Origin: an uncultured archaeon
GTDB lineage: Archaea > Altiarchaeota > Altiarchaeia > IMC4 > SCGC-AAA252-I15
Reading direction: 5' to 3'
Assembly (NCBI GenBank): GCA_902384455.1
Contig: CABMCB010000071.1
Coordinates: forward strand, 59,774-123,773
Length of the DNA: 64,000 nt
The notes under the pieces are model-generated. The model did not search any database. It was not told where the DNA came from and saw only the letters and a list, made by a program, of their open reading frames with translations. Numbering within the stretch: position 1 is the first letter of the stretch; each line of letters starts with the position of its first letter. The position numbers were made by a program, and so were the translations under genes. Below are positions 6,067 to 45,246 of the stretch, in pieces.

Positions 6067-6108
6067 GGGGTGCCGGTTCTTTACCCCATTTTGTCGTCTC
6101 CGCTTAAA

Positions 6109-6978: not shown

Positions 6979-6983
6979 TTGGT

Positions 6984-8432
6984 TTATCCGCCGTTTTTCT
7001 TTGGGGTCCAGCGTAGTACGGGGTTTCTTGCGGCTTGTGTTTCGTTTAGTCGTCTTACTGGCGTGTTGTGTGGGGCTGTTTTGATTTTTTCGGGGTTTGT
7101 TTTGGCTTCCTGCCTGATTTTTAGGAGGAGTTCTGCGTATGCGTCGAGGGTGTCTTTGTTTTCTGTTTCAGTTGGCTCTATCATCAAAGCTTCTGGGACT
7201 ATGAGGGGGAAGTATATTGTGGGCGCATGTACGCCGTAGTCGAGGAGGCTTTTGGCCACGTCCAGCGTGTGCACTCCGGTTTCGTCTGCGAGTGGTTTGC
7301 CTGTAAGTACGACTTCGTGCATGCATGTGCGGTCTATTGCGGGGGGGTAATCCTTTAGTTTGACGCGCATGTAGTTGGCGGACAACACCGCCTGCTCAGA
7401 CATCCTCTTTAGTCCCCGTCCGCCGAGGCTTCTCATGTAGGCGTAGGCGCGAACCATCACGCCGAAGTTTCCGAAGTAGCTTCTGACGCGGCCTATGCTT
7501 TTTTCGCGGTTGTAGTCAAGCCGTATTCTGCCTCCTTTTTTCACAAGTATTGGCGCGGGCAGGTACGGTTCAAGGTCTTTGGTGACGCCTACCGGTCCTG
7601 AGCCGGGTCCTCCTGAGCCGTGGGGTGTTGCGAATGTTTTGTGTAAGTTTATGTGCAGGACGTCGAAACCCAAGTCGGCTGGGCGCGTTATCCCCACTAT
7701 GGCGTTAAGGTTGGCTCCGTCTCCGTAGACGTATCCGCCCGCGTCGTGGATAATTTTAGTGACCTGAAGTATGTTCTCCTCAAACAGCCCCAGCGTAGAA
7801 GGGTTGGTGAGCATCAAAGCGGCCGTGCGGTCGTCGGCTTCCGCGGCAAGAAGGTCCAATGAAATGTTTCCTCTGCCGTCGCTTGGAATCTCGACTATCT
7901 CAAACCCTAAGGCTGCGGCTGAAGCCGGGTTTGTTCCGTGGGCACTGTCTGGGATTAGTATTCTGTTTCGGCGCGTCTCATTTTTGTCTTTGAGTGCGGC
8001 TTTGATTATGAGCAGTCCCGTGAGTTCTCCGTGCGCTCCTGCGGCCGGTTGCAGTGTGAATGCGGGGAATCCTGTTATTTCGGAGAGCATTGTTGAGAGC
8101 GTGTACATTAGGCGCATGGCTCCTTGGGTTTCATCTTCCTCCTGTAGGGGGTGCAGGCGGAGGAATCCTTCTTGGTTTGCCGCGTCTTCGTTTATTTTGG
8201 GGTTGTACTTCATTGTGCAGCTTCCAAGAGGGTAGAATCCTTTGTCTACGTTATAGTTTCGGGAAGCAAGCTCTGTGAAATGGCGCACCACGTCAACTTC
8301 GCCAAGTTCGGGAAGATGAAGCGACTTCCTTAAAGCCTCCTTAGGCAGGGCAATCGGTTCACCTGCCGTGCCGCGCGGAGGTATGACTCCTCGTCTGCCG
8401 TTCCTGCTTTTTTCAAATATGAGATTTGTCAT
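6984..8432 (-). CDS. gcvPB: Glycine dehydrogenase (decarboxylating) subunit 2
   Basis: 482 aa, PLP-fold with 'INLHKTFATPHGSGGPG' (PLP-lysine region). It overlaps gcvPA by 4 nt. Confidence 0.9.
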   Translation of the reverse strand: MTNLIFEKSRNGRRGVIPPRGTAGEPIALPKEALRKSLHLPELGEVDVVRHFTELASRNYNVDKGFYPLGSCTMKYNPKINEDAANQEGFLRLHPLQEEDETQGAMRLMYTLSTMLSEITGFPAFTLQPAAGAHGELTGLLIIKAALKDKNETRRNRILIPDSAHGTNPASAAALGFEIVEIPSDGRGNISLDLLAAEADDRTAALMLTNPSTLGLFEENILQVTKIIHDAGGYVYGDGANLNAIVGITRPADLGFDVLHINLHKTFATPHGSGGPGSGPVGVTKDLEPYLPAPILVKKGGRIRLDYNREKSIGRVRSYFGNFGVMVRAYAYMRSLGGRGLKRMSEQAVLSANYMRVKLKDYPPAIDRTCMHEVVLTGKPLADETGVHTLDVAKSLLDYGVHAPTIYFPLIVPEALMIEPTETENKDTLDAYAELLLKIRQEAKTNPEKIKTAPHNTPVRRLNETQAARNPVLRWTPKKNGG

Positions 8433-12695: not shown

Positions 12696-13781
12696 ATGGA
12701 CAAATTGCGAGTTGGAGTATTGGGGGCCACCGGAATGGTAGGTCAGAATTACTTGCGGCTTCTTGAGAATCACCCCTGGTTCGAGGTGGCGTACGTAGCC
12801 GCCTCTCCAAAAAGCGCAGGCAAACCCTACGCTGAGGCGGTAGCCGGCAGATGGAACCTCGACAAGCCCATTCCAGAAAAAGTCAAAGGCCTTATGGTTG
12901 AGGACGCCTCCAACATTGCGGCTGCTAAAGGCAAGGCGGACTTCGTTTTTTCCGCGCTTGATTTGCCCACAAAAGACGAGACTAAGGCATTGGAATTGGC
13001 GTACGCCAAAGAAGGATTCCCCGTGTTTTCCAACAGCAGCGCCAACCGGTGGACAGAAGACGTCCCAATGCTGATTCCAGAAATCAACCACGGCCACCTG
13101 AGTCTCATAGAGTCCCAGAAGAAGAACCGCGGGTTCAGCAAGGGCTTTGTGGTAGTGAAACCCAACTGCTCGCTTCAGTCATACATTACGCCAATCCACG
13201 CTCTTGAGCAGAAGGGGCACAAAGTCGAACTGCTAGTCATAACGACCCTTCAGGCAGTTTCCGGCGCAGGATACCCCGGAGTGCCGTCGCTTGACATGGT
13301 AGACAACATCGTCCCCTACATCGGAGGCGAAGAAATAAAGACCGAAAAAGAGCCAAGCAAAATATTCGGTAAAATAGCCGCCGGAAAATGCGTCCCAGAC
13401 GAATCAATCAAAATCACGTCCACATGCACAAGAGTACCCGTCGTAGACGGCCACACAGCGTGCGTCACAATGAAGTTTAAGGGCGCAAAACCCTCCAAAG
13501 AGGAAATAATAAAAATATGGCGCGACTTCAAGTCCGCGCCTAAGGAGCTAAAGCTCACCTTCGCGCCCGAAAGACCCATAATCTACATTGAAGAAGAAAA
13601 CCGGCCTCAACCGCGCAAAGACCGCGACTCAGAGAAGGCAATGGCCGTCACATGCGGCCGCTTGAGGGATTGTCCGGTTTTCGACTACCGGTTCGTGGGG
13701 TTGTCTCACAATACTGTGCGCGGAGCTGCTGGAGGCGGAATACTCAACGCTGAGCTCGCCTATAAAAAGAATCTGCTTTAG
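12696..13781 (+). CDS. asd: Aspartate-semialdehyde dehydrogenase
   Basis: 'LRVGVLGATGMVGQ' NAD(P)-binding motif and active-site Cys in 'VKPNCSLQ'. The archaeal-type short Asd start is M8 of the track ORF. Confidence 0.88.
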   Translation: MDKLRVGVLGATGMVGQNYLRLLENHPWFEVAYVAASPKSAGKPYAEAVAGRWNLDKPIPEKVKGLMVEDASNIAAAKGKADFVFSALDLPTKDETKALELAYAKEGFPVFSNSSANRWTEDVPMLIPEINHGHLSLIESQKKNRGFSKGFVVVKPNCSLQSYITPIHALEQKGHKVELLVITTLQAVSGAGYPGVPSLDMVDNIVPYIGGEEIKTEKEPSKIFGKIAAGKCVPDESIKITSTCTRVPVVDGHTACVTMKFKGAKPSKEEIIKIWRDFKSAPKELKLTFAPERPIIYIEEENRPQPRKDRDSEKAMAVTCGRLRDCPVFDYRFVGLSHNTVRGAAGGGILNAELAYKKNLL

Positions 13782-14278
13782 GCGTTGGCAAGTTCGCGGA
13801 GGGTTTTGGGCCAAGCGTCCCCAAACTTATCTTTGAATTGCCGAGGGGCATTCGCGTATTCGTCTACTACCTGCGGCGGATTGCTGCCGGTGTAAGGCGC
13901 TGACCTGAATATGAATGCGACGTGAGTGCCTTCTGCAACATTCATTCCATTAATGAGGCATTTGGCAGCTTTCACGTAATCCCCCGGGTTGGGGTTGCTT
14001 TCATGAGATCCGGCTTCAAACGCTAAGACGCCTGAACTCAGGAGTCCTACGACAAGTTGATTCACACGTCTTGAACTTACGCCATCTAGGAACCCGTGAT
14101 GGGGTCCGGCGTGAACGATAGTGCCGTCTTCTCCGCTGGCGGGGTCAAAAGCGAAAACAAGAGGGTCCCTTAAGCCCTGACTGAATTCCGTGAACATCCT
14201 GCCGACTTCGGCAGAATCCATGACGTCGTTCCCCTCTAGGTACGTGCGGTCCCGCTGGGCTCTTGTCACTTCCGGCAT
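13778..14278 (-). CDS. Hypothetical protein, weak creatininase-family-like N-terminus; possibly truncated
   Basis: 'VFAFDPASGEDGTIVHAGPHHGFLDG' loosely resembles the creatininase/ArfB 'PvGSxEQHGPHLP' region. At 166 aa it is short for that family, and a second same-strand ORF (14296..14556) lies just upstream. Confidence 0.3.
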   Translation of the reverse strand: MPEVTRAQRDRTYLEGNDVMDSAEVGRMFTEFSQGLRDPLVFAFDPASGEDGTIVHAGPHHGFLDGVSSRRVNQLVVGLLSSGVLAFEAGSHESNPNPGDYVKAAKCLINGMNVAEGTHVAFIFRSAPYTGSNPPQVVDEYANAPRQFKDKFGDAWPKTLRELANA

Positions 14279-15097: not shown

Positions 15098-16252
15098 ATG
15101 GTCGCTAAACGAGTCAGTGAGATACCTTTTTCGGGTATCCGGAAGTTCTTCGAGCTTGTGGAGCAAAGCAAAGGCATAGTCAGCCTGGGTGTTGGCGAGC
15201 CCGACTTCAATACTCCCCGGCCGATTTCAGACGCGGGAATACGCGCTATTGAAGCCGGTTACACAAGCTACACCAGCAACTGGGGGCTTTTGGATTTGAG
15301 GGCGAAGATAGCCGAGAAACTTAAGGTAGAGAACGGCTTACATTATTCGCCTGAAAATGAGGTCTTAATTACTGCTGGAACCAGCGAGGCGCTTGACCTT
15401 GCGTTTAGGGCGCTGATTAATCCCGGCGACGAAGTGCTTGTTCCTGAGCCAAGTTACGTCAGCTACAAGCCGTGCGTGTGGTTCGCTTATGGAACTCCGG
15501 TTGCAGTGCCAATGAGGGAGGAAAACGATTTCCGCGTTCAGGAAGACGACTTGCGCAAGAAAATCACAAAGAAGACCAAGGCGATAATAGTCGCCTCCCC
15601 AAACAATCCGACTGGAAGCGTACTCACCAAGAAAGACCTGAAGGCGATTGCTGCAGTAGCCCAGGAACACGACCTGTGGGTGATAAGCGACGAACTATAC
15701 GAATACCTAATATACGACGGGGAAAAACACGTCTCCATAGGAAGCTTCCCCGGAATGCGAGAACGCACAATAACAATAAACGGATTTTCCAAAGGACACG
15801 CATTCACCGGATGGAGAATAGGATACGCCGCAGGCCCGGCAGAAGTAACTGAGCTTATGATGAAAATCCACCAGTACACGATGCTTTGCGCGCCAACAAT
15901 AGCCCAACACGCCGCGCTTGCCGCATTCAACTGCAAAAAAGAAGTCAAAGCGATGCAGGAGGAATACGACCGAAGACGCAGACTGCTGGTAGCCGGATTA
16001 AACGAGCTTCCAGGCGTAACCTGCCGCATGCCCAAAGGAGCATTCTACACCTTCCCAAACATAACCGGAACAGGAATGGACAGCGAAACATTCGCCCAAC
16101 GGCTCGTAAAAGAAGCGCAAGTAGCGGTAGTCCCAGGCCACACCTTCGGCCAGACCGGAGAAGGACACGTCCGATGCAGCTACAGCGTAAGCCGCGACAT
16201 AATCACGGAAGCGCTCTCCCGAATGCAAAAATTCCTGGCGAAAAAAGTGTAA
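15098..16252 (+). CDS. Class I/II PLP-dependent aminotransferase (aspartate/aromatic aminotransferase-like)
   Basis: PLP-lysine motif 'NGFSKGHAFTGWRIGYAAG'. 384 aa. Confidence 0.85.
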   Translation: MVAKRVSEIPFSGIRKFFELVEQSKGIVSLGVGEPDFNTPRPISDAGIRAIEAGYTSYTSNWGLLDLRAKIAEKLKVENGLHYSPENEVLITAGTSEALDLAFRALINPGDEVLVPEPSYVSYKPCVWFAYGTPVAVPMREENDFRVQEDDLRKKITKKTKAIIVASPNNPTGSVLTKKDLKAIAAVAQEHDLWVISDELYEYLIYDGEKHVSIGSFPGMRERTITINGFSKGHAFTGWRIGYAAGPAEVTELMMKIHQYTMLCAPTIAQHAALAAFNCKKEVKAMQEEYDRRRRLLVAGLNELPGVTCRMPKGAFYTFPNITGTGMDSETFAQRLVKEAQVAVVPGHTFGQTGEGHVRCSYSVSRDIITEALSRMQKFLAKKV

Positions 16253-16362
16253 CAGAAACCTCCAGACTAGAAAAACCGCAGTTTTCGGCCGTTTCCGGCG
16301 GAAAAGAATAAATAATAGGCAGTCTGCCTCTTATCACTATTTAGCAGGGAGTATTAAGTGTC

Positions 16363-18369
16363 ATGGGCAGCAGCAGGGGCGAATCCCCCTTAGGGAAATT
16401 AAAGCGGATGGTACTTGGGGGAGCCCGCAATCCCCACGACCCGCAGCTGTTCCATAAGCTCTCTCTCATAGCGTTCTTCGCTTGGGTTGGCCTTGGGGCC
16501 GACGGACTGTCTTCTTCATGTTATGGTCCTGAGGAAGCGTTTCTTTCTCTTCAGGGGCACGTCTACTTGAGCATTTTCGTTGCGTTGGCTTCGGCGGTAA
16601 CCATATTCATCATCAGCTCAAGCTACTCTCAAATAGTCGAGTTGTTCCCCACCGGCGGAGGAGGGTACCTTGTGGCCAGCAAGCTCCTTTCGCCTTCGTT
16701 GGGAATGATTTCCGGATGCGCCCTTATGATAGACTACGTACTCACCATATCCTTATCTATAGCAAGCGGCTCCGATGCGTTGTTCAGCTTCCTGCCGCCC
16801 CATCTGTATTCATTCAAACTCGTTTTCGCTATCTCAGGAGTGTTGGTTCTCACCCTACTCAACCTGCGGGGCATCAAGGAATCCGTAATCCCCCTCGTGC
16901 CCATATTCATCCTGTTCCTGTTAACCCACGCATTCGCAATCGTCTACGCAATAGCAACCCACGTGCCAGAAGTCGGGACAGTAATCGATGCGACTGCCGC
17001 AGACGTCCAAACAACAAGCGCAGAAATAGGGATAATCGGGATGCTGCTGCTAATACTGCGCGCATACAGCATGGGAGCCGGAACATTCACAGGAATAGAA
17101 GCAGTAAGCAACGGCATACCCATACTGCGGGAACCCAAAGTCCAGACGGCCAAAAAGACGATGCGCCTAATGGCAGTCTCACTCGCATTCATGGTAATAG
17201 GTCTTATGATAGGATACCTGCTCTACAACGTAGGCCATCAGCAGGGGAAGACGCTGAACGCAATATTCCTGGAAAAAATGACATACAACTGGGGGACAGT
17301 CGGCTACGCGTTTGTACTAATCACCCTGCTGTCCGAAGCCATACTACTATTCGTTGCCGCCCAGACCGGATTCTTGGACGGACCCAGGGTACTATCCAAC
17401 ATGGCGTTAGACCGATGGTTCCCATCCAGATTCGCCATACTATCCGACCGCTTCGTCACCCAAAACGGCATAATGCTCATGGGCGCGGCAGCATTCGTTC
17501 TGATGATAGCCAGCCAAGGCTCAGTGAAACTCATGGTCGTCCTATACAGCATAAACGTATTCATCACATTCCTACTCTCACAACTGGGGATGGTACGCCA
17601 CTGGTGGGCCGAAAAAGCGACATCCCCCGGATGGGAAAAGAAAATAATAATAAACGGGATAGGACTCATACTCACGGCATTCATACTTGTGACTGTGGCA
17701 TACCTAAAGTTCGAAGAAGGCGGCTGGATAACAATATTCATAACAGGCTCCCTAGTATGCTTCGCCCTAATAATACGCCGCCACTACGACCACGCGCAAC
17801 TGCGCCTCGAACGCCTAGACGGCCTAATCCGCGACAACCTGCTTAAAGACGCAGACTTCTCAAACCCCAAATGCCTGCCCCAACAAAAAGAAGAATGCAC
17901 GCCAGAATTCGACCCCAAAGCAAAAACCGCAGTCATACTCGTCAACGGATTCAACGGACTGGGCCTGCACACAATACTTAACGTACTGAAACTAGGCGAC
18001 ATAAGAAACTTCTTCTTCGTCGAAGTAGGCCTTATCGACGCAGGAAACTTCAAGGGTCTGGAGGAGTTCGAGAAGCTGAAGAGCCACATAAACGACGAAT
18101 TAGGCCACTACGTGACGTTCATGCAGAAGCAGGGCTTCTACGCTGAAGGACGCTCGGACATAGGAATAGACGGCGTAGACGAAACGTGCGCATTAGTCAA
18201 CAAAATCATCGAAGCCCACCCCGACGCTGAAGTATACGGCGGACAGTTGGTTCTGCCTAAAGAGACTTTCTTCTCCAAGTTGCCTTACAACCAGACGACT
18301 TTTGCGGTGCAAAGGCGGCTTGAAGAGCAGCAGGTGCCATTCAGGATACTGCCCATACAGTTGGGTTAA
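16363..18369 (+). CDS. KUP/APC-superfamily membrane transporter with a ~200-aa C-terminal cytoplasmic domain
   Basis: About 12 predicted TM helices in residues 30-460, followed by a soluble domain (…VILVNGFNGLGLHTILNVLKLGD…). The overlapping 376-aa ORF in another frame is an artefact. Confidence 0.7.
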   Translation: MGSSRGESPLGKLKRMVLGGARNPHDPQLFHKLSLIAFFAWVGLGADGLSSSCYGPEEAFLSLQGHVYLSIFVALASAVTIFIISSSYSQIVELFPTGGGGYLVASKLLSPSLGMISGCALMIDYVLTISLSIASGSDALFSFLPPHLYSFKLVFAISGVLVLTLLNLRGIKESVIPLVPIFILFLLTHAFAIVYAIATHVPEVGTVIDATAADVQTTSAEIGIIGMLLLILRAYSMGAGTFTGIEAVSNGIPILREPKVQTAKKTMRLMAVSLAFMVIGLMIGYLLYNVGHQQGKTLNAIFLEKMTYNWGTVGYAFVLITLLSEAILLFVAAQTGFLDGPRVLSNMALDRWFPSRFAILSDRFVTQNGIMLMGAAAFVLMIASQGSVKLMVVLYSINVFITFLLSQLGMVRHWWAEKATSPGWEKKIIINGIGLILTAFILVTVAYLKFEEGGWITIFITGSLVCFALIIRRHYDHAQLRLERLDGLIRDNLLKDADFSNPKCLPQQKEECTPEFDPKAKTAVILVNGFNGLGLHTILNVLKLGDIRNFFFVEVGLIDAGNFKGLEEFEKLKSHINDELGHYVTFMQKQGFYAEGRSDIGIDGVDETCALVNKIIEAHPDAEVYGGQLVLPKETFFSKLPYNQTTFAVQRRLEEQQVPFRILPIQLG

Positions 18370-34581: not shown

Positions 34582-35013
34582 TTAGTTTCTGCGTGGTTTT
34601 TTCGTCCTGCGGTAGCAGCTCCACACCATTATCTTCTGGACTCTAAGTAGCAGTTCAGGGATGTTTATCGGCTTCGCCATGAAGTCGTCTGCGGTCAGCA
34701 TGCCCATCTTCTTAGTCATTTCGTAGTCGTACTTTGCCGTCACGTAGATTACCGGAACATCAGATGCTTCCGTCATTTTCAGCTTCGCCCGGAGGGCGAA
34801 TCCGTCCATGTCCGGAAGCGCAATGTCCAACAGAATCAGGTTCGGCTTCTTTTGCATAACGTATTTCAGGCATTCCGAGGCGTTTTTGACGCAGTCAACC
34901 GCGTATCCCCTGTCGTAGGACTCCATGCCACCCTTAACAGAAGAGAGAACCTCTTCGTCGTCGTCCACAATCAGAATCGTCGTCTTAACGGCCATTATTC
35001 CCCTCTCATTCAC
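34582..35013 (-). CDS. Orphan response regulator, CheY-like receiver domain only
   Basis: 'ILIVDDDEEV', phospho-acceptor 'LILLDIALPDMDGF' and 'VIYVTAKYD'. No output domain and no histidine kinase in the window. Confidence 0.8.
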   Translation of the reverse strand: MNERGIMAVKTTILIVDDDEEVLSSVKGGMESYDRGYAVDCVKNASECLKYVMQKKPNLILLDIALPDMDGFALRAKLKMTEASDVPVIYVTAKYDYEMTKKMGMLTADDFMAKPINIPELLLRVQKIMVWSCYRRTKKPRRN

Positions 35014-35021
35014 GTTAGGTG

Positions 35022-36560
35022 TTATCCCCTCCTTGCTAGTCCCCCCCTTGTCTGGGTTTTAGGAGGCTCAGTGAAGTCCGTAAGTAGTTGTTCCCTGTTG
35101 CCATATACGCCGAGTATGGCATCTTTCATGAACGCAGTGAATTGTTCGACTTCCATTTGGTACTGAGGATTTGCTTCGTCTACCGTGGTTATCTCGGATT
35201 CTTTCAATGCTGCTGCCTGGATTCTGGGGTCGTCGGTTACGCCGGGTATAGGCTCCCTGTGAAGGCTCCTTGAAACAATCAATTCGACGGTCGAATCCTC
35301 AGTGGACGTGCGCTGCGAACCGTATGCCAGTAGGCCGTTTCTGGCTCCTGCTGCTCCCACGAGGTTGTTGAACAGCACTTGGTCTCTTATGTCTTTGCTT
35401 TGCCAGATTGCAGCGTGGGGTTGCTCTGAGTCGCCTTCGTGAAAGTTGAATACGAGGCTGCCTTTTTCATGGGCGAGCGCGCTTGTGAAGTCTCTTGCCG
35501 GGGCTGCAGGATTATGTTGTTCCCATTCAGTGAACGAATGTCTGAGTCTTTTTGCGGTTTCGAAGGCTTCAGCTGCCATGCCTGAGTCAGCCCCTTCTGC
35601 GGTCATCTGATTCAGGACTACGTCCCGGACTCCGTCGCCGTAAGAAATCATTCCTCCGCCTGCTACGCGGGCTTTTCTGGCGGCGTCAAGCACTAAGGGG
35701 GCAAGGTGGTCGGGCACGTCAATGCCTACTCCTTCAGAATCCCTCCAAACCCTAAGGCGGCTTACGTAGTCGCTGGCTCCATACTCCATATGCTCCCTAA
35801 AATCAACCACCTCCAAAATTTCAGGGTCGGCCGCAAGCCTCCTCATGACTTCTATGGGGGTGGGCTCAGAACTGCGGTGTTCCCCCCATAATATCACGGG
35901 TTTCATTTCCAGCGCCTGCGCGGCCGTGTGCGCATTATCGAGGGTGCCTGTTGCGTCGTCTGCTTTGTGGGCGGCAAGGACTTCATTAAAGGGTCTGCCG
36001 TATCTTTGGCAGGCTTCTAGTGTGAACGATAGGTCGTCTATCATGTTTTTTCTGGGTGTTGCGCCGTCTTCTTCGAAGAAGAGTTTTCTTAAGGCGGCGG
36101 TTCTCTCGGGTTCTATTGTGTCGGGGTAATGTAGGTTGGCTACTGCGTAAAGCACGTCGTGCGCTTGCTGCCGTCCGGCTCCCAGCGCAGTTGCAAGCAT
36201 TTTTTCGGTGGCAACCGCTGGGGTGTCAGACCTCACTTCAGCCGGCAGCAATTCTAGTTCAGTTAAGCTGTGTTCCCTGTGGATTTCGACGAACCTGTCC
36301 GACTGAGTGAGGAATCCTGACCTCCTCAAATCGTCGCTTAAGCGCGCAGGCTGAGTTCGCGCCATCTTCAAAAAGTCTTCGCCTGCCTGCATCTTATCGC
36401 GGTCGTGACCTTCAAGCAGACCGCTTTTTTGTAGAACCCTGATTCTGCTGTTGGACGAGAAGACGTTGGTAACCAAGGAATCAACTTCCTCCGCGGTTAA
36501 ATGGCTGAGATACTCCGCCCGCGCCTCAGGCGCCTTGCCTCCCCGCTCAACTACAGCCAT
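35022..36560 (-). CDS. Hypothetical 512-aa protein (Ala/Asp/Glu-rich), probably co-transcribed with the receiver gene
   Basis: Long ORF with clear coding periodicity and no TM or known motifs. It ends 8 nt before the response regulator start. Confidence 0.5.
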   Translation of the reverse strand: MAVVERGGKAPEARAEYLSHLTAEEVDSLVTNVFSSNSRIRVLQKSGLLEGHDRDKMQAGEDFLKMARTQPARLSDDLRRSGFLTQSDRFVEIHREHSLTELELLPAEVRSDTPAVATEKMLATALGAGRQQAHDVLYAVANLHYPDTIEPERTAALRKLFFEEDGATPRKNMIDDLSFTLEACQRYGRPFNEVLAAHKADDATGTLDNAHTAAQALEMKPVILWGEHRSSEPTPIEVMRRLAADPEILEVVDFREHMEYGASDYVSRLRVWRDSEGVGIDVPDHLAPLVLDAARKARVAGGGMISYGDGVRDVVLNQMTAEGADSGMAAEAFETAKRLRHSFTEWEQHNPAAPARDFTSALAHEKGSLVFNFHEGDSEQPHAAIWQSKDIRDQVLFNNLVGAAGARNGLLAYGSQRTSTEDSTVELIVSRSLHREPIPGVTDDPRIQAAALKESEITTVDEANPQYQMEVEQFTAFMKDAILGVYGNREQLLTDFTEPPKTQTRGGLARRG

Positions 36561-36687: not shown

Positions 36688-36918
36688 TTAGTCTCCTGGT
36701 CCGCCTCTGCCGCCGGGTCCGCCTCCGCCGAAGGGTATCAGTATGTTGCCTGCTCCTCTCCCCCCGCCGGTGTTGCCGCTGCCTGAGGATATTGCGTTCC
36801 CGGTATTTGTTGCGTCGTTGAGGCCTAAGTATGTAATTAGTAGGTAGCTTGCTGCAAGTAAGGCGAGTATTATTGCGGCGACTTCCAGATAATCCAGTTC
36901 AGTACCTAATATTTTCAT
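36688..36918 (-). CDS. Small Gly-rich protein with N-terminal hydrophobic segment; possible pilin-like signal
   Basis: 'MKILG|TELDYLEVAAIILALLAASYLLITYL' then a Gly-rich tail (GGGRGAGN…GGGGPGGRGGPGD). It is the last gene of the minus-strand surface/ABC module. Confidence 0.4.
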   Translation of the reverse strand: MKILGTELDYLEVAAIILALLAASYLLITYLGLNDATNTGNAISSGSGNTGGGRGAGNILIPFGGGGPGGRGGPGD

Positions 36919-36948
36919 GTTATTTTTCCCTACTGTTTCTTAGTTGGG

Positions 36949-37413
36949 TCAGTTAGGTTGTCCTGCGTTAGGTGGCTGGTCTTGCGGATTCATGTTTCCG
37001 TCTGGCCGAGGGGGTCGTCCTGTGAAGTTGCCGGGCCGTTGTCCTGTCCTGTTTATTGTGCAGGTTAGTTCTCCGGTTTGTTCTGTCTGGCATGTGCCGT
37101 TTCTGGTTCTGTTCCCGAACGTGACGTCGCATGTGTCGCCTGGGTTTTTGCCGGCGCAGAGTTTAATCAGTTCCTGAGTCATGTTTGCTCCGATTGGGCC
37201 ACCTGGGAATTGGTCGCGCGTGTAGTTCGATGAGTTTCCGCGGTGCATTGGGTAGGGCGGTTGTGGTCCTGCGTTAGGCTGCTGCGGGGGTTGCTGGTTG
37301 TCCTGCTGTATTTGCTGGTTATTCTGCTGTTGCTGGTTATCCTGCATGTCGGTTTGCCCCAAGCATCCTGAAACAATAAGGCATAATCCGATTAACATTA
37401 AAATCCTTTTCAT
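36949..37413 (-). CDS. Gln/Asn/Pro-rich lipoprotein
   Basis: Lipobox 'LIVSGC'. Poly-Q/N low-complexity region, then a Cys-containing domain (CAGKNPGDTCDVTFGNRTRNGTCQTEQTGELTC). Start overlaps the ABC ATPase stop. Confidence 0.5.
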   Translation of the reverse strand: MKRILMLIGLCLIVSGCLGQTDMQDNQQQQNNQQIQQDNQQPPQQPNAGPQPPYPMHRGNSSNYTRDQFPGGPIGANMTQELIKLCAGKNPGDTCDVTFGNRTRNGTCQTEQTGELTCTINRTGQRPGNFTGRPPRPDGNMNPQDQPPNAGQPN

Positions 37414-38126
37414 TTTCTTGTTTCCTCCTTTGTTTTTTCGGCCGCTGCTTTGTGTATCAGGCCGTCTTGTATCTGTATTATGTGGTTTGATGTTTTGGCT
37501 ATGCCTGGGTCGTGGGTTACAACTACAAGCGTCTTATTCTCCTCTTTGTGGAGTCTGACGAGGAGTTCCATAATCTTTTTTCCTGTTTGGGTGTCGAGGT
37601 TTCCGGTGGGTTCGTCTGCCATGATAATCTTAGGGTTGTTGGCAAGCGACCGCGCCACAGCGACACGCTGCTGCTGTCCCCCGGACATTTCAGTTGGTTT
37701 GTTGTTCGTCTTATCCTCAAGACCCACAAGAGAAAGGAGTTCATCAGCCCTTTTTTTCCTTTCTGCGGCTGGAGTGCCCTCAAAGCGCATGGGTAACTCA
37801 ACGTTTTCGAAGGCCGTCATGTTGGGTATGAGGTTGAACTGCTGGAAGACGAAGCCCAGTTTTTCCCTCCTAAGTTTAGCCTTCTGGTTGCCATTTAATC
37901 CGCTTATTCCGACGCCTTCGATGTAGACTTCGCCTGACGTGGGAGAATCAAGACAACTTATGAGGTTTAGGAGGGTGGATTTGCCGGAACCCGACGGACC
38001 CATAATGCTTACGAAACTGCCGTCCGCTATGGTGAGGTTTATCCCCTTCAAAGCCACGAACTCGTTCTGCTGGCCTACATTGTATGTCTTCACCAAATCC
38101 TTGCAGGTTATTTCTCCGTCATTCAT
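37410..38126 (-). CDS. ABC transporter ATP-binding protein, MacB/LolD family
   Basis: Walker A 'GPSGSGKSTLLN', signature 'MSGGQQQRVAVARSL' and Walker B 'IIMADEPTGNLD'. 238 aa. Confidence 0.88.
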   Translation of the reverse strand: MNDGEITCKDLVKTYNVGQQNEFVALKGINLTIADGSFVSIMGPSGSGKSTLLNLISCLDSPTSGEVYIEGVGISGLNGNQKAKLRREKLGFVFQQFNLIPNMTAFENVELPMRFEGTPAAERKKRADELLSLVGLEDKTNNKPTEMSGGQQQRVAVARSLANNPKIIMADEPTGNLDTQTGKKIMELLVRLHKEENKTLVVVTHDPGIAKTSNHIIQIQDGLIHKAAAEKTKEETRK

Positions 38127-39303
38127 AGCGCAACACCCGTATAGGATCGAGCTGTGAGGCGCTCCACGCGGGATATAAGCCTGCTCCCATGCCCAGGAAT
38201 ATGGAGAAACCTAAGCCGATTGCCATAAGTTGCGGCGTCATTATGGGCGTGAAGGAGGTGTACTGCGGGACTATTCCTACGGCTAAGTAACCCAGCGACA
38301 GGCCTACTGCGCCGCCCATAAGGCTCATTATGGCGCTTTCCTGGAGGACCTGTTTGAGTATCATGCCTGTTGTCGCGCCTATGGCCTTCATTACGCCTAT
38401 TTCCCGTCTGCGTTCCATCACCGACATTATCATGGTGTTCATGACTCCGAGTCCGCCGACGATTACCGATACTGCCCCGATTCCATATACTGCGAGTTGG
38501 ACGGTTTGGAGAGAGGACTCTATCTGGCGCACCATTGTTATCATTGAGCTGGCTCTTACGCCGTCGACTTGGTCGTTTATCTCCTGAGTAGTGTTTTCCA
38601 CAGTGGATACGTCGTTTAGTTTCACCTTCAAAGACTCTATCCTATCGTCGTTTTCTATCTCCTGCATCGTCTTCAAAGGCACGTAAGCTGCTCCGTCTAT
38701 GCTGGAATCTCCAGTCTGCTCTAGTATCCCGATGACTGAGAAATAATAGCTTTCTACGGTCGAAGTCCCGTTTACCCTTTGCTGGTACTCAATCTCGTCT
38801 CCCACATTCAGGTTCTGATCCTGGGCGGCCGTATAACCCAAGAGGACTACCGTCTGGCCGTCGTCTGTAGACTCCAGTTTTCGGCCTTCGGTGGCTTCTA
38901 TGGTGTCGCCTATCATGTAGTCTTGGTCGTCTGGGTTGATGGCGGTGAAAGTCACTGAATTCGAGCCGCCACTCCTCCCGAAATTAAGGGGGCCTCCGAA
39001 GTCTCCTCCTCTGCTGAAGCTTCTTGTGATGCGGTATGTGCCTATGGGTATGACGCTTGAGACTTCGGGCATACTCGCTATCTGGTCTATGCTGTCCTGC
39101 GTTATTCCTGTTTGAGTGTCAGAGGAGTCCCTGACGTCGATGACCGCCGCGACATCTCCGAATCGCGCGTTCATCTGCTCGTTAAGCCCTTCGCCGATGG
39201 AGCCAAGCGCAAGAATAAGGCCTATGCCCATGGCTATTCCGGCTATTGTTAAGGCGCTTCTAATCTTCTGTCTGAAGACGTTTTTTACCGCTATGTCCAG
39301 CAT
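38119..39303 (-). CDS. ABC transporter permease, FtsX/MacB type, with a large extracytoplasmic domain
   Basis: N-terminal TM, about 220-aa external domain, then a C-terminal 3-TM FtsX-like bundle ('VMKAIGATTGMILKQVLQESAIM…'). It overlaps the ATPase gene by 8 nt. Confidence 0.8.
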   Translation of the reverse strand: MLDIAVKNVFRQKIRSALTIAGIAMGIGLILALGSIGEGLNEQMNARFGDVAAVIDVRDSSDTQTGITQDSIDQIASMPEVSSVIPIGTYRITRSFSRGGDFGGPLNFGRSGGSNSVTFTAINPDDQDYMIGDTIEATEGRKLESTDDGQTVVLLGYTAAQDQNLNVGDEIEYQQRVNGTSTVESYYFSVIGILEQTGDSSIDGAAYVPLKTMQEIENDDRIESLKVKLNDVSTVENTTQEINDQVDGVRASSMITMVRQIESSLQTVQLAVYGIGAVSVIVGGLGVMNTMIMSVMERRREIGVMKAIGATTGMILKQVLQESAIMSLMGGAVGLSLGYLAVGIVPQYTSFTPIMTPQLMAIGLGFSIFLGMGAGLYPAWSASQLDPIRVLRYE

Positions 39304-39304
39304 T

Positions 39305-40999
39305 TTAGTGTTTCTTCTTGGCTTTCAGCTTCCTATACCCCAGGTAAGCTAGGGCGAGGACTATCGCTATGGCTGCGTATGTGGTCATGCTGGTTCCGCC
39401 GCCGTTTAAGTTACCTCGCAAACCTGAGAACGTGCTTCCTCCGCTTGAACCCAAAGTTATCCTCTCGGTTTGAGTGACCCTCTGGTTGTTGAGGCCTGTG
39501 TACTCCAACTCTAATGTTGCGGGGCCTGTGGCGGTAGTAGAGAACGTGAACGTCGTCTGTTTGCTCGGCTTTATGTCGGATTTGTATGATATGATGCGTT
39601 GGTCCGTCTGCAGCTGGCTGCCGGTAATATTCCTTCTGAAACCTGCATTTTGGTTGTCGCTGCCGTTTTGGACTTGGGCGCCTTGGTCTGGACTTCCGGT
39701 TTGGTTTCGCTGGAATCTGCCGCCTTGGAAGCCGCTTGTGTCGTTTGAGACGCCGGATACTATAAGCGTCGCCTTGATTCCGTCCGCTTCTCTTGTGCCT
39801 ATGTTGGCGACGTCAATGCTTATGCTTCCGCTTGAGGACCTCACAGCCATTACTTCCAGCACTATTCTGCCTGCTACGTCGAGCCCTATGTCTTTGGTGA
39901 CGTTGTATGTTGTGCCTCCTACTTTGTATGTGATAATCAACGGTATTGTGTAACTTGTCGTGGAGGCGCTCCATCCTACAGCCACCTTAAAGTTGGCGTC
40001 AACTGTTCCTTGGGATGGGACATTTTGGAAGTAACTTTCTGTTGTGGTGACAGGCGAGAATGGGTCGGTGAGGTCTAGGTTCAACGTCACGTCGTCTGCG
40101 TTGGCGCTGCCGACGTTTTTAAGGCTTATCTTCATCTCCGTTTCCTCTCCTGGACCGGTCGGGGTGGTGCTTATGCTAACTACCTTAAAGTCTACTCCCG
40201 CGTCCTCAATGTTTAGGCCTATTGAGGCGTTGTCTGAGGCTTTGCTTCCTGAGGCGTCTGTGTAGGAGAGGCGTATTGATGTGGTGCATGCGCCTGATGT
40301 TGAGGGTTTTATGGGGTATGTTAAAGTGAATTTCTGGTTTGATGCTACGTCTCCGACGTATTTGCTTGATGAGCCCATTATTGTGGCGCAGCTTGAGGAT
40401 AGTGTTACTGTCAGGTCTTTTACGGCGTCTTTTGTTGTGCCTTCAAGGACTAGGTTGTCGAGGGTGTCTCGGTAGTAAGTTGTTTTTGTGGGGTTTATCT
40501 GGAATAGGGGGTTGCCCAGTATGTTGAGCGGTATCTCCCATGTTGTGAACGCGTTGTTGTCTTTAGAGCCGTCTGACTTGTAGCCGTTGTATGTTATCAG
40601 CACCTGTATGGCGGTTAGCCCTGTTTTTGCGGTTGGGTTGATTGTGAATATCACTGGCATGGCTTTTGAGTCTCCTGGGTCCATGCCTCCTATGTAGTAT
40701 GTTTTGTCTGTGGTGACTGTTGCTGTGCTGGAAAGCAGCACTTGGACGTTATCTGCGCTCTGTCCGCCGGTGTTTTTTATGACTAAATTAAGGATTCCGC
40801 CGTCTCCAGGCCGCAGGTTGGAGTCTACTGAGGTGGTTGTGAAGTCTACGACCATGTTTGTCGCTGCGGTGTTTGTGGATGAGGCTGTGCTTGTTGAGCC
40901 TACTGTGGCGGCGTTGGCCGTTATGCTGAGTAATCCTATTATGGTTAATGCTATTAGCAGTGTTTTTCCGTAGTATCTGTGATTTTGCTTTTCTATCAT
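39305..40999 (-). CDS. Cell-surface protein with repeated CARDB/COG1361-like domains and a C-terminal TM anchor
   Basis: Signal peptide, then multiple 'LxLxIKNxGxxxAxNVxV'-type beta-sandwich repeats ('GGILNLVIKNTGGQSADNVQVLL', 'MKISLKNVGSANADDVTLNL'). C-terminal 'TTYAAIAIVLALAYLGYRKLKAKKKH'. Confidence 0.7.
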   Translation of the reverse strand: MIEKQNHRYYGKTLLIALTIIGLLSITANAATVGSTSTASSTNTAATNMVVDFTTTSVDSNLRPGDGGILNLVIKNTGGQSADNVQVLLSSTATVTTDKTYYIGGMDPGDSKAMPVIFTINPTAKTGLTAIQVLITYNGYKSDGSKDNNAFTTWEIPLNILGNPLFQINPTKTTYYRDTLDNLVLEGTTKDAVKDLTVTLSSSCATIMGSSSKYVGDVASNQKFTLTYPIKPSTSGACTTSIRLSYTDASGSKASDNASIGLNIEDAGVDFKVVSISTTPTGPGEETEMKISLKNVGSANADDVTLNLDLTDPFSPVTTTESYFQNVPSQGTVDANFKVAVGWSASTTSYTIPLIITYKVGGTTYNVTKDIGLDVAGRIVLEVMAVRSSSGSISIDVANIGTREADGIKATLIVSGVSNDTSGFQGGRFQRNQTGSPDQGAQVQNGSDNQNAGFRRNITGSQLQTDQRIISYKSDIKPSKQTTFTFSTTATGPATLELEYTGLNNQRVTQTERITLGSSGGSTFSGLRGNLNGGGTSMTTYAAIAIVLALAYLGYRKLKAKKKH

Positions 41000-41110
41000 T
41001 TGTTATCAACTCCATTATTTTTTATAGGTGCTTTTCCTATCATTAGCAGAAACAGTATAAAAGCTGATCGTGTAACAAACTGAAACAAGTAACAAACTGA
41101 AACAAACTCT

Positions 41111-41734
41111 ATGGAAAGCAATCTCAAATATACGGTTGTGATGGTTTTGGCCTTTATGCTTAGCGGATTCATGCTTAGCACATATGTTTTTTCGGCTTAC
41201 TCAATGCTTTGGGATAGTCGTGAACCCCCTCACGACCTGCCGTTTAGCAATCCTAACAATACGGTGAATCTCTCTAACGCGGCAGAAAATCTTACTTTTC
41301 CAAACCACGAGACTTCGCAAGTTAGGCCCACTAGAGAATTGCCCGAGATACCGCCGTTCATACCGCGAAGGACTATGATGAGGGGGAGTACTAGCCTAAT
41401 TGAACTTTTGTTGTCGCCATTCATGATGTTCCTTCTCATAGGCGGGTTGATTTCGCTGTCAAGCGCCATAGCCATACGAACGCTCACGCATAAGAAAGCC
41501 ATAAAGAAGCTGAAGGACGACTTAACTGAGCTGTACCTCACCGACGAAGAGAAAAAGGTGGTGACTGTACTGCAATCAGCATCATCCGAGATGACTCAAA
41601 AAGAGTTGACGGACCGGATGGGATATTCGCGCGTCAAAACCCACAGAGTGCTTCAGAGGCTAGAGTCAAAAAAAATTATCCGGAAAATACCCAACGGCCA
41701 AACGCATAAGATACTTCTTGAGGACAAGGTATAG
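41111..41734 (+). CDS. Membrane-anchored winged-helix transcriptional regulator
   Basis: Two TM segments (residues ~8-30, ~118-140), then a C-terminal wHTH 'MTQKELTDRMGYSRVKTHRVLQRLESKKIIRKIP'. It is divergent from the surface/ABC module. Confidence 0.55.
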   Translation: MESNLKYTVVMVLAFMLSGFMLSTYVFSAYSMLWDSREPPHDLPFSNPNNTVNLSNAAENLTFPNHETSQVRPTRELPEIPPFIPRRTMMRGSTSLIELLLSPFMMFLLIGGLISLSSAIAIRTLTHKKAIKKLKDDLTELYLTDEEKKVVTVLQSASSEMTQKELTDRMGYSRVKTHRVLQRLESKKIIRKIPNGQTHKILLEDKV

Positions 41735-42297: not shown

Positions 42298-42699
42298 ATG
42301 ATAAGGCCGGTTTACTATACTGTATTGAGCATCGTATTGTTGTCTACCCTAGCATTCATCCCCTGCCTAGTTGCGGCAGATGCGCCGCCCCGTGAAGGGG
42401 CGGGTGCCGCTTACCGCCCGTTCCCCCTTATTCCCTTCCTAAGTTTGGTCGCGCTCGTTCAGATAGGCGTGGGCGGCTTAGCATTCATCCTTTTTTTAAT
42501 ATCCCTCCTAGCCTACAAGCGAGATCGCAGAACCAAGTTCCTGGCAGTATCCATATCTTTCCTCCTCTTCACTTTGAAGGGAGTGTTAAGTTTGTGCGGC
42601 CTTATGAATCCGGTGGATTCGCTTTTCATGATACCTTTCTCGGATTCGTTTGACTTCCTTATCCTGCTTCTGCTGTTTATTGCAGTCCTAAAGGATTGA
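42298..42699 (+). CDS. Small integral membrane protein (3-4 TM)
   Basis: 133-aa hydrophobic ORF. Its stop overlaps the start of the downstream regulator gene (ATGA). Confidence 0.45.
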   Translation: MIRPVYYTVLSIVLLSTLAFIPCLVAADAPPREGAGAAYRPFPLIPFLSLVALVQIGVGGLAFILFLISLLAYKRDRRTKFLAVSISFLLFTLKGVLSLCGLMNPVDSLFMIPFSDSFDFLILLLLFIAVLKD

Positions 42700-43253
42700 A
42701 TATGCTACGACTCCCTAAAGATGAAGTTCTCGAGTTAGACGTCCGAAGGAAGATTTATGAGGAGATAGTAAAGTCTCCGGGACTGCATGTAAGGGAGCTC
42801 CAAAGGAGGGTTAACATAGCTTACGGAGCATTACAATACCACCTGTCATTTCTTGTGAAACACAACCTTGTGGCAGAGGAAAAAGGCGTAGAATACTCCC
42901 GTTTTTTCCCTACAGAATTCAAGTCAATTCGAGAGCGTGAACTCATGTCTTTGTTGCGGCAGGAGAGCATTAGACGCATCCTTTTGCACCTGCTTAATAC
43001 TCCTGCGGCCAGAAACAAGGAGTTGGCGGAAGGGGTTGGTTTGTCTCCTTCAACAGTCTCTTGGCACATAAGCAAGTTGACGGAAGTGGGGGCTGTAGTG
43101 CAGGAAAATAAGGGCGGTGACGTTCTTTTCAGAGTCAGCGAGCCGGAGGTCGTAACGCGTCTCCTTGTCACGTACAAATCCAGCTTCTTAGACACTATAG
43201 TCGATCGGTTCGTCGAAGTTTGGGAGAAGGAAAACATTAAGACGGCAAAGTAA
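42696..43253 (+). CDS. Transcriptional regulator with two tandem ArsR/TrmB-like wHTH domains
   Basis: 'DVRRKIYEEIVKSPGLHVRELQRRVNIAYGALQYHLSFLVKHNLV' and 'IRRILLHLLNTPAARNKELAEGVGLSPSTVSWHISKLTEVGAV'. Confidence 0.65.
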   Translation: MNMLRLPKDEVLELDVRRKIYEEIVKSPGLHVRELQRRVNIAYGALQYHLSFLVKHNLVAEEKGVEYSRFFPTEFKSIRERELMSLLRQESIRRILLHLLNTPAARNKELAEGVGLSPSTVSWHISKLTEVGAVVQENKGGDVLFRVSEPEVVTRLLVTYKSSFLDTIVDRFVEVWEKENIKTAK

Positions 43254-44133: not shown

Positions 44134-45246
44134 TTAAGGAGTTATTAGTCCAGTGCATCTCCAGTTTATCTCCGTCTGCTGTGTCTCCTCGGATACGACG
44201 CACGCTGGGTTGCATCCTGACTTAGGCTGTTTAGGTTCGATGTCTACCCACCATGTTTTGCTGTTTGGGTTGTAGTAAGGCGTTCCTTTTGGCGTGCCGT
44301 CGCTTGCGCATTTGGCGCTGGCGATAGTCAATGCTTCGTCGGCTGTCATTGTAGAAGTTGATTCTGTCGGTTTGACGTCCTCCATCCTGTCGACGGTCCA
44401 GTTGGTGAGGGTGAGTTTGACTTGTTCGCCTTCTTTGGACAATGTTACAGCAAAGCAACCGGGGCATTTGTAGACGTCCACCTGGATGACTGTCAAGGCG
44501 TAGGATTTGCCTAAGTATGAGACTGCGGTTGACGCAGCCTTCTTCTGGCTTTCGTCTTTAATCTCCCAGCTTCTTGTGCACGCGCCGACTGCTTCATCGA
44601 AGCTGTACCCTGCCGGCCCAAGGCAGCCGTGCTCGTCTTTTTGGCCTCCTATCAATTGGGTGTCATTTTCGGGGCATTCTCCCGTAACATAGGAGTCTAT
44701 TTTGGCGCTGCATGCTCCGCAGCCGTTGCCGTACGTTTTTCCGTCGCTTCCGCAGACGGGGTTGTAATCCATGGTGCAGGCGATATTCTGCTTCTCAGAT
44801 TCAGTGCATGCGTGGGTTTCAGTTTCCTCCTGCCTGCATGTTGGCGGGCCTCTGCAGCCGCAATCGTCCACTTTGCCCTGTATCTTAGTTCCGTTTTGGC
44901 ACCAGCCTGGTGCGGGAGAAACAAGTTGCGGGCAAGGTCCGCAGTTCTTCTTGTCGACGGATGCTTCCTGCGTTTCTCCGCTACTTTTTGGTTCAGAGGC
45001 GTTTGTTGTTTTGCATGCGTACTCGCACGCGGATTTTTCGAGACTATACCTCCATCCGCCAGCGCAAGTTTCGTGAGGTTTGTCGATGTTCTGCCTGAGG
45101 CAGCATTCGTCGCGGCCGGTTGGACTTACTGTCCCGCAGCTTCCGCCGACAATAGGAGGCTGCCGGTTCATCTCAACCAGCCCCAAGATTCCTATCACAA
45201 CAACAAGCAAAAACAATCCTATCAAAATCTCCTTTACGGTGTTCAT
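44134..45246 (-). CDS. Secreted Cys-rich protein containing a Kazal-type inhibitor-like domain
   Basis: N-terminal TM/signal. '[35 protein letters not shown]' matches the Kazal pattern C-x-YxPVCG-[ST]-DG-x-TY-x-N-x-C…C. Many additional paired cysteines. The plus-strand 208-aa ORF is an antisense artefact. Confidence 0.6.

Follow-up and report, generated by a model that had tools for sequence, protein, structure and literature searches.

A MacB-type transporter of Altiarchaeota paired with a CARDB/COG1361 surface protein and a membrane-tethered regulator: a candidate inducible envelope machine

What does a transporter of the MacB family do in an archaeon, when the gene beside it encodes a CARDB/COG1361-family surface protein and not a recognisable adaptor? 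The question is raised by a group of genes at positions 36688-41734 in a 64,000-nucleotide (nt) stretch of the genome of a Candidatus Altiarchaeota archaeon (the whole stretch is referred to below as the window, and all gene coordinates are positions in it). The locus encodes the surface protein (termed the CARDB protein below), a permease and an ATPase, followed by a predicted lipoprotein and a small product of 76 amino acids (aa), with a regulator gene on the opposite strand. The window proteins are deposited as 'Uncharacterised protein', and their homologues come nearly all from metagenome-assembled genomes of Altiarchaeota. MacB-type machines are well understood in bacteria, where they sort lipoproteins, export toxins and antibiotics and control cell-wall hydrolases, among other tasks, and are essentially unstudied in archaea. 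A preliminary description of this DNA had remarked that the linkage of COG1361 genes with ATP-binding cassette (ABC) transporters recurs in archaea, with no described function known; our literature search agrees, and no published function was found in it for the COG1361-ABC linkage, for DUF7343 or for archaeal MacB-type systems. The answer proposed here, which we regard as about evenly poised between right and wrong, is that the locus may encode a type VII ABC machine that is inducible and has the CARDB protein as a partner outside the cytoplasm, most likely a machine that expels or extracts a peptide toxin or amphiphile.

The CARDB-permease-ATPase triad is the core of the module. A scan with a CARDB-protein profile over one genome per GTDB species gave 34 loci, all in Altiarchaeota or closely related archaea (the labels L001-L045 denote the surveyed loci), in which gene order was mapped by tblastn and hidden Markov models (HMMs) and the flanking open reading frames (ORFs) were clustered. 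The order CARDB, permease, ATPase, with the CARDB gene always first, is found in every one of the 34 Altiarchaeota loci with enough flank, and holds in Altarchaeum sp. although the CARDB protein there is 25% identical. Seen as it is in each informative locus from 34 independent Altiarchaeota genomes, the linkage is more than chance. The junctions recur as well. In the window the CARDB stop and the permease start read TAA-A-ATG, with a 1-nt spacer at 39304 (still tight coupling), and the ATPase and permease genes overlap by 8 nt at 38119-38126; elsewhere the first triad junction is a 1-nt gap or an 8-nt overlap and the second an 8-nt overlap. A further overlap of 4 nt, at 37410-37413, joins the lipoprotein start to the ATPase stop. 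Of the three gene overlaps described previously, the last two therefore stand and the third is the 1-nt spacer. All six ORFs (6/6) are present at the coordinates given earlier when checked against the window sequence and translations, and the domain calls made for the CARDB protein, permease, ATPase, regulator and lipoprotein were upheld by Pfam and NCBIfam scans, a transmembrane (TM) scan and the lipobox. The five-gene arrangement that the preliminary description had put forward as a unit is not conserved as such in the related loci. The exact arrangement of long divergent regulator, CARDB, permease, ATPase and lipoprotein is found again in L024, L027 and L035; in general the flanking parts are variable, and include DUF7343 proteins, a SHOCT-like protein, a secreted protein ('cl2'), the lipoprotein and a second triad. 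In a homology search with the permease, nearly all of the 120 matches listed were Altiarchaeota-level.

The transporter is a type VII (MacB-type) ABC transporter. Its permease has four TM helices, an external Porter and Sabre domain and an FtsX C-terminal domain, and is paired with a nucleotide-binding domain (NBD) of LolD/MacB type, the features that define this transporter type (PMC8277102). The permease matches Pfam MacB_PCD (3.2e-27, 96.6 bits, cut-off 27) and FtsX (3e-21, 76.1 bits, cut-off 25.5). A hydropathy scan places its TM helices at residues 18-36, 270-288, 327-345 and 359-377, leaving an external region of ∼220-230 aa between TM1 and TM2. In the AlphaFold2 model (predicted local distance difference test score, pLDDT, 74.9), TM1 and TM2 extend into long stalk helices (H2-48 and H254-297) and the external domain is a beta-alpha-beta Porter interrupted by a Sabre insertion, with a disordered Gly-rich loop, RGGDFGGPLNFGRSGG, at residues 94-114, the Gly-richness of which is kept across the family. 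In Foldseek comparisons the model gives a TM-score of 0.74 to Acinetobacter baumannii MacB and of 0.59-0.60 to Spr0695 and LolE; the fold also matches FtsX, and BceB is a distant fold match. By sequence, its best matches in the PDB are Spr0695 (5xu1) and MacB, then YtrF and LolE. For the ATPase, the best NCBIfam models are LolD, MacB, DarD and FtsE, all below their equivalog cut-offs. Its closest solved relative is MJ0796 of Methanocaldococcus jannaschii (1.1e-77 over residues 7-226), followed by Spr0694, MacB and LolD; MJ0796 has been treated as a possible representative of MacB-family NBDs (PMC8277102). Its translation retains intact Walker A (GPSGSGKST), signature (SGGQQQR) and Walker B (IIMADEPT) motifs and an H-loop.

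Assignment to a named bacterial system was tried and rejected. The equivalog models for LolCDE score 244.7 against a cut-off of 307.75 (TIGR02211, LolD) and 86.8 against 362.45 (TIGR02212, lolCE), and those for FtsEX score 212.3 against 264.85 (FtsE) and at best 58.9 against 250 (FtsX). Pfam and NCBIfam scans of the locus proteins detected no HlyD, biotin-lipoyl or membrane fusion protein (MFP) family and no LolA or LolB, and family scans gave no EnvC/PcsB-like partner in the locus. Because the equivalog cut-offs are missed widely and the defining partners are absent from the locus, the transporter is not assigned to LolCDE, FtsEX or MacAB-TolC. A search for anti-phage defence with PADLOC gave generic ABC-ATPase and LolE-TM matches and no specific system.

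The CARDB protein scores above the Pfam cut-offs for both CARDB (42.3 bits) and NPCBM_assoc (26.5 bits). Its AlphaFold2 model (mean pLDDT 80.7) consists of a signal-peptide helix, four beta-sandwich domains and a C-terminal TM helix. The signal peptide is of Sec type. The domains span residues 45-162, 163-267 (with the conserved Cys204 and Cys238), 268-377 and 378-517, the fourth containing a disordered insert at 418-463, and are followed by a flexible Gly/Ser linker, the TM helix at 538-562 and a basic tail. Eighty orthologues were collected, nearly all from Altiarchaeota. Each of the four domains is well conserved, whereas the anchor and the insert are not: pairwise identity within the ectodomain rises from 0.50 to 0.61 towards the membrane and is 0.36 in the anchor and 0.18 in the insert; the gradient between domains is weak and does not by itself locate an interface. 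Conservation of this kind resembles the pattern of a machine part, unlike that expected for a fast-evolving adhesin. Pfam and NCBIfam scans and fold comparison detected no enzyme domain in the protein. Because COG1361 genes also occur in Thermoplasma and Ferroplasma, both without a visible surface layer (S-layer) (PMC10354927), the COG label 'S-layer domain' is not taken as a function.

The main reason for proposing the CARDB protein as the extracytoplasmic partner of the pump is its positional equivalence to an adaptor. Cassettes for comparison were drawn from a plasmid collection, with the addition of one distant CARDB match. In the plasmid cassettes of Haloarcula pelagica, Halobaculum sp. 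and Methanomethylovorans hollandica, a gene for a hypothetical protein of 400-508 aa is followed by an ATPase gene and a permease gene. The three first-gene products are collinear with the window CARDB protein over 250-300 columns (hhalign 96%, 87% and 68%), and Pfam CARDB is found in two of the three. These haloarchaeal and M. hollandica cassettes are plasmid-borne and flanked by insertion sequences (IS), which fits an accessory, transferable trait. The metagenomic contig L041 has a PadR regulator gene, an ATPase gene, a gene for a CARDB-rich protein of 937 aa and a permease gene. In the Bacillus plasmid cassettes, which hold the nearest plasmid-borne bacterial permeases, the corresponding genes encode an adaptor (annotated as biotin/lipoyl or 'RND adaptor'), an ATPase and a permease, with Yip1 following in one of them, an order that is the layout of YknWXYZ and Spr0693-5 (PMC8277102). 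Judged from these alignments and gene orders, a CARDB-family protein takes the operon slot of the adaptor across archaeal lineages. The CARDB/COG1361 protein, MacB/FtsX permease, LolD/MJ0796-type ATPase and membrane winged-helix regulator, grouped together in the preliminary description, are indeed a recurrent module, with linkage seen across Altiarchaeota, Halobacteria, Methanosarcinales and the metagenomic contig.

Among characterized systems, the closest are Spr0693-0694-0695 and YknWXYZ. Like them, the module has a LolD-like ATPase encoded separately from a four-TM permease with a Porter/Sabre domain, and is a three-gene cassette in which one extracytoplasmic, membrane-anchored partner is encoded first; Spr0695 and Spr0694 are the best and second-best solved sequence matches of the permease and ATPase, respectively. 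Unlike them, the partner is an array of CARDB beta-sandwiches with a C-terminal TM anchor and not a MacA-type adaptor of coiled-coil, lipoyl and beta-barrel domains, the order in the window is partner, permease, ATPase, and the regulator is a membrane-tethered DUF7343 winged-helix protein. A Yip1/YknW-like gene adjoins the Methanomethylovorans cassette, a further likeness to YknWXYZ. Yip1-family genes beside MacB-type cassettes lie at 1489-2133 in L044 (M. hollandica pMETHO01) and at 4562-5236 in L045 (Bacillus mycoides p33), and their presence beside both an archaeal and a Bacillus cassette recalls the YknW of YknWXYZ. MJ0796 is an archaeal LolD-like ATPase, known from studies of the isolated protein only; the products of the adjacent genes MJ0797 and MJ0795, which we take to be an FtsX-type permease and a COG1361 protein, would make the same triad. 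E. coli LolCDE and MacAB-TolC are of the same ABC type as the window system, with the same mechanotransmission architecture and fold of the permease; unlike them, the window has a single permease gene, implying a homodimer, and no equivalents of LolA/LolB, MacA or TolC in the locus. In Firmicutes, the BceAB-BceRS and BcrR-type modules for sensing and resisting peptide antibiotics pair a MacB/FtsX-family transporter with a sensor or regulator of its own that is embedded in the membrane; the partner of the ten-TM BceB is a histidine kinase, while BcrR has an N-terminal helix-turn-helix (HTH) and regulates a different ABC type. The window transporter is likewise co-encoded with a membrane-embedded regulator, which differs from both in being a two-TM, one-component protein with a C-terminal winged helix.

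This regulator matches Pfam DUF7343 (PF24034) over residues 143-202 (35.1 bits, cut-off 27.6). TM1 (residues 5-23) and TM2 (104-122) enclose an external loop of ∼80 aa, in which there are three N-glycosylation sequons, and a basic stretch leads from TM2 to the C-terminal winged helix. The long, divergently encoded form is present in ∼11 loci, being found in the same position in L006, L008, L009, L011, L013, L017, L021, L024, L027 and L035. A short form (136 aa, two TM helices) is found elsewhere; its gene has the orientation of the triad and follows that of a SHOCT-like single-TM protein (76-119 aa; 19 loci). In one form or the other, a membrane DUF7343 winged-helix protein is present in 27 loci. 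Other regulators beside cassettes are PadR in L041 and a large HTH protein in M. hollandica. Having a regulator of its own is typical of a stress or resistance cassette.

The region between the regulator and CARDB genes is 111 nt long and contains, in minus-strand reading, two exact copies of GTTTCAGTTTGTTAC at 41072-41086 and 41089-41103. The repeats end 8 nt before the regulator ATG and lie directly upstream of a TATA-like box relative to the CARDB operon. The motif has two matches in the window against 0.32 expected, even with two mismatches allowed. Exact matches to GTTTCAGWTTGTTWC are confined to 8 of 44 loci, where they always lie within the regulator-CARDB intergenic region, and all eight carry the long divergent regulator. 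In the alignment the core GTTTCA..TTGTT.CA and the TATA-like element are invariant, the latter, (GC)TT(T)TATA, being aligned and conserved in seven loci. Because the encoded proteins are only 30-60% identical across the loci with GTTTCAGWTTGTTWC, the repeat is regarded as a phylogenetic footprint, and is most simply read as a putative binding site of the regulator; the TATA-like box CTTTTATAC is a putative promoter of the CARDB-permease-ATPase-lipoprotein operon. The earlier inclusion of the membrane-bound regulator in the module gains support from its recurrence and from this conserved, operator-like footprint. L024 (4410-4430), L027, L035 and L017 share an additional palindrome, TGTTACATCCAATAGTAACA, downstream of the TATA-like box, which may be a second operator; the window is without TGTTACATCCAATAGTAACA.

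In the proposed mechanism, a dimer of the ATPase and a dimer of the permease would convert ATP hydrolysis into movement of the external domain (mechanotransmission), so that the target of the machine would be at the membrane's outer face and would not be carried across the bilayer. The CARDB protein would be a stoichiometric extracytoplasmic partner, through or against which this motion acts, and thus a non-homologous counterpart, in the same operon slot, of the adaptors MacA, YknX and Spr0693. The regulator would sense an envelope signal via its external loop or its TM helices and control the operon through the repeats. By analogy with the adaptor-dependent MacB-type systems of single-membrane bacteria, the job would be to expel an antimicrobial peptide, toxin or other amphiphile, or to extract it from the membrane surface. 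This task is proposed as the likeliest because the nearest bacterial systems, the regulators dedicated to the cassettes and the mobility (plasmids and IS) of their homologues point to it. Protection against the SDP toxin is provided by YknWXYZ, and the Streptococcus pneumoniae D39 operon Sp0785-0787, likened to spr0693-0695, is induced by antimicrobial peptides; no regulator is among the components listed for LolCDE and FtsEX in the same review (PMC8277102).

Several points weigh against this mechanism. The adaptor analogy is one of gene position alone, and structure comparison gave no fold similarity between the CARDB protein and the periplasmic adaptor protein (PAP)/MFP adaptors. The operator assignment is drawn from a phylogenetic footprint. 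The system is near-universal and mostly single-copy in Altiarchaeota, with permease identities of 48-75%, which fits a housekeeping function in the envelope equally well. Gene order varies, being CARDB-permease-ATPase here, CARDB-ATPase-permease in Euryarchaeota and ATPase-CARDB-permease in L041, and the survey outside Altiarchaeota is anecdotal, comprising four loci. A broader reading, tentative and rather doubtful, is that CARDB/COG1361 proteins might be the archaeal, non-homologous equivalent of periplasmic adaptors in general, forming the beta-sandwich conduit or arm of an archaea-wide, winged-helix-controlled machine that expels peptides or amphiphiles through the pseudo-periplasm. If this is true, a widespread 'dark matter' gene pair, of which the neighbours of the textbook ATPase MJ0796 would be an example, would acquire a function. 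The systematic pairing of an archaeal pump with a CARDB/COG1361 protein in the place of an adaptor turns a vague co-occurrence into hypotheses that can be tested: there is a complex to model or purify, a putative operator to footprint, and a set of plasmid cassettes in haloarchaea and methanogens that are in cultivation and may be open to genetics. The transporter belongs to a known type; an obligate CARDB partner in the slot of the adaptor, the DUF7343 regulators with their putative operator, and the accessory families are not described in the literature found.

One of these accessory families is the lipoprotein. Its lipobox, VSGC at residues 14-17, after MKRILMLIGLCLI, conforms to the archaeal motif [LVI][ASTVI][GAS]C as given in PMC12462473, and the product is accordingly a predicted lipoprotein. 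A disordered linker, Q/G/P-rich across the family, is followed in the window by a four-Cys module (C86, C95, C108 and C118) with the pattern C-x-GK-x3-D-x-C ... G-x-C ... L-x-C. In the alignment of eight loci the module is 35 residues long, A-C-x-G-K-x3-D-x-C-x13-G-x-C-x7-L-x-C, and is present in one or two copies per protein. No Pfam or NCBIfam model matches it, and a HMMER scan of 1.84 billion representatives found it in 73 clusters, in 1-8 tandem copies (often 2-8) separated by Pro-rich linkers. Some of these clusters appear bacterial, by sequence composition alone. The lipoprotein gene is present in 8 of 35 loci including the window, always on the strand of the triad and directly adjoining it, before CARDB or after the ATPase gene, and is tightly coupled only in the window. 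The lipoprotein is thus a genuine but optional accessory and not part of the core. Its earlier description as part of the module holds in that it belongs to a real family always adjoining the triad, and fails in that only a minority of loci carry it, at either end.

The same genes can be read in other ways. In a reading that we consider unlikely, the transporter would assemble, release or mature the CARDB protein, and perhaps the lipoprotein and the small protein, as its substrates. The CARDB gene co-occurs strictly with the transporter genes and is tightly coupled to them, many triads are flanked by accessory genes for secreted proteins or lipoproteins, and MacB-family machines do act on extracytoplasmic proteins, as LolCDE does on lipoproteins and MacB on the enterotoxin STII. 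However, the CARDB protein has its own Sec-type signal peptide and TM anchor, and needs no dedicated exporter; because of these features and the adaptor's operon slot, it is less likely to be an exported substrate than a subunit or partner. In bacterial cassettes a translationally coupled first gene in 1:1 ratio is where the adaptor subunit is encoded, conservation of the ectodomains is like that of a machine part, and the other would-be substrates are often missing: 27 of 35 loci have no lipoprotein gene, and no locus but that of the window has the small ORF. A model in which nothing is transported, and in which ATP-driven motion would switch on an extracytoplasmic activity held or recruited by the CARDB protein (e.g. 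envelope or S-layer remodelling), is rather more improbable. It draws on the matches of both proteins to FtsE and FtsX models and of the permease to the FtsX fold, and on the fact that such systems have a dedicated extracytoplasmic partner, FtsEX acting by the activation of hydrolases (PMC8277102). The FtsE and FtsX scores are nevertheless below cut-off, the external domain is a canonical MacB Porter/Sabre domain closest to MacB and Spr0695 and not to FtsX, and the CARDB protein lacks any detected enzyme domain; the dedicated regulators and the plasmid and IS mobility better fit a stress cassette.

Less probable again is a Lol-like role, in which lipobox lipoproteins such as the four-Cys one would be extracted from the inner membrane for delivery to an outer membrane. 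LolD is the top NCBIfam match of the ATPase, lolCE is among the permease matches, LolE is a strong fold match, and the lipoprotein and ATPase genes overlap; moreover, Candidatus Altiarchaeum hamiconexum has a double membrane (PMC4460559), which the 50%-GC lineage of the window may or may not share. On the other side, the Lol scores fall far short of the equivalog level, a LolA/LolB-like carrier is absent from the locus, and the lipoprotein gene has the sparse distribution and loose coupling described above. The same triad, furthermore, occurs in Halobacteria and Methanosarcinales, which are single-membrane archaea. The remaining alternative, that the 76-aa protein is a pilin-like subunit processed by PibD and assembled by the ABC machine, is effectively refuted. 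It takes its support from a Gly at position 5 with a hydrophobic helix further on, from gene-like codon usage, and from the position of the ORF, which shares the strand of the lipoprotein gene and lies 30 nt beyond it. The codon log-likelihood of the ORF is 0.282 per codon, compared with 0.200 ± 0.146 for real chunks of 77 codons and a maximum of 0.170 for spurious overlapping ORFs, and the ORF is annotated in the source record; it is probably expressed. Archaeal prepilin peptidases need a cleavage site that directly adjoins the hydrophobic domain on its N-terminal side, with G, A or S at position -1 and a charged amino acid at -2 (PMC4371748). In the N-terminus MKILG|TELDY, Gly5 fits the -1 rule, but the residue at -2 is the uncharged Leu4, and the H-domain starts at about residue 13, eight residues after Gly5, with the stretch T-E-L-D-Y-L-E, containing three acidic residues, in between. 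The FlaFind-type pattern is absent, the product has no globular pilin domain, and the ORFs scanned within ∼10 kb include no pilus-assembly gene. The product matches only itself among 5.8 billion protein clusters, no orthologue was found in 38 related loci by tblastn and HMM, and nothing analogous follows the lipoprotein gene in L024, L027 and L035. Nor does a class III signal gene recur beside the triads: three such patterns were found among 1229 mechanically called flanking ORFs of 35 loci, none recurring, and the window's own is an antisense ORF inside the lipoprotein gene. Both the call of a pilin-like product and its proposal as a new element of the module are thereby withdrawn, the latter under the refuting condition that the preliminary description itself had set, and a false lead is removed. 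The 76-aa ORF is better described as a lineage-specific orphan, predicted to encode a single-pass micro-protein, whose membership in the module is unproven. Its tail (residues 45-76) has 78.9 RGG/FGG-type motifs per 1000 aa, against a background of 2.4. Gly/Arg/Phe-rich segments were also considered as a feature linking the components and rejected, the permease (7.6) and CARDB protein (3.5) being within the window's range.

Table 1. Genes and putative regulatory elements of the locus, with positions in the window
Feature	Coordinates	Strand	Description
76-aa ORF	36688-36918	minus	Orphan, predicted single-pass membrane micro-protein, Gly/Arg-rich tail
Lipoprotein gene	36949-37413	minus	154 aa, predicted lipoprotein, lipobox VSGC, Q/N/P-rich linker, one four-Cys module
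ABC ATPase gene	37410-38126	minus	238 aa, LolD/MacB/MJ0796-type, Pfam ABC_tran (8e-38)
Permease gene	38119-39303	minus	394 aa, MacB-type (type VII ABC), Pfam MacB_PCD and FtsX
CARDB/COG1361-family surface protein gene	39305-40999	minus	564 aa, Pfam CARDB and NPCBM_assoc
TATA-like box CTTTTATAC (putative promoter)	41055-41063	minus	56-64 nt upstream of the CARDB start codon; sequence read directly
Operator-like tandem repeat, two exact GTTTCAGTTTGTTAC copies	41072-41103	minus	17-nt period
Membrane-tethered regulator gene	41111-41734	plus	207 aa, two TM helices, C-terminal DUF7343 winged helix

The variable surroundings of the triad follow a few patterns. A set of three genes, encoding the SHOCT-like protein, the short DUF7343 HTH protein and the secreted protein cl2, precedes most Altiarchaeota triads and is absent from the window (examples are L001, at 6545-7830, L002, L005, L007, L010, L016, L018, L020 and L022); in L004, L027 and L035 it is placed after the triad. 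The secreted protein is 150-195 aa long, is found in 19 loci and contains repeated motifs of the type 'LGL-x-ENAT..E.REA'. The set looks like an alternative sensor and regulator set for the same pump. Searched with HMMs of the cl2 and SHOCT-like families, the window contains neither, and the 76-aa ORF is no diverged copy of either. A second, paralogous triad adjoins the long regulator in L009, L021, L008 and L011; in L009 (∼3000-7900) the regulator, ATPase, CARDB2 and permease2 genes are on one strand. The divergent regulator of the window may be a remnant, or a shared regulator, of such a two-cassette arrangement. In L001, an Altiarchaeales genome, two Peptidase_C39 genes (bacteriocin-processing type; 13369-13941 and 16218-17683) lie 2-5 kb downstream of the triad, a pair not seen in the other inspected loci.

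The genes around the module in the window are of diverse kinds. Just downstream, at 34582-36560 (minus strand), a gap of 8 nt separates a gene for a cytoplasmic protein of 512 aa, which forms a singleton cluster and matches neither Pfam nor NCBIfam, from a following gene for a stand-alone CheY-like receiver (143 aa); neither gene was found in the related loci. On the other side, at 42298-43253 (plus strand), a 4-nt overlap joins a gene for a four-TM DUF7471-like protein (133 aa) to one for a double-HTH protein (185 aa), which combines an HVO_0163 N-terminal HTH with an ArsR-type HTH; this pair is not conserved with the module. Further on, at 44134-45246 (minus strand), is encoded a Cys-rich, membrane-anchored or secreted protein of 370 aa with a Kazal-type serine-protease-inhibitor domain (Pfam Kazal_1, 8e-10), which is unusual for an archaeon.

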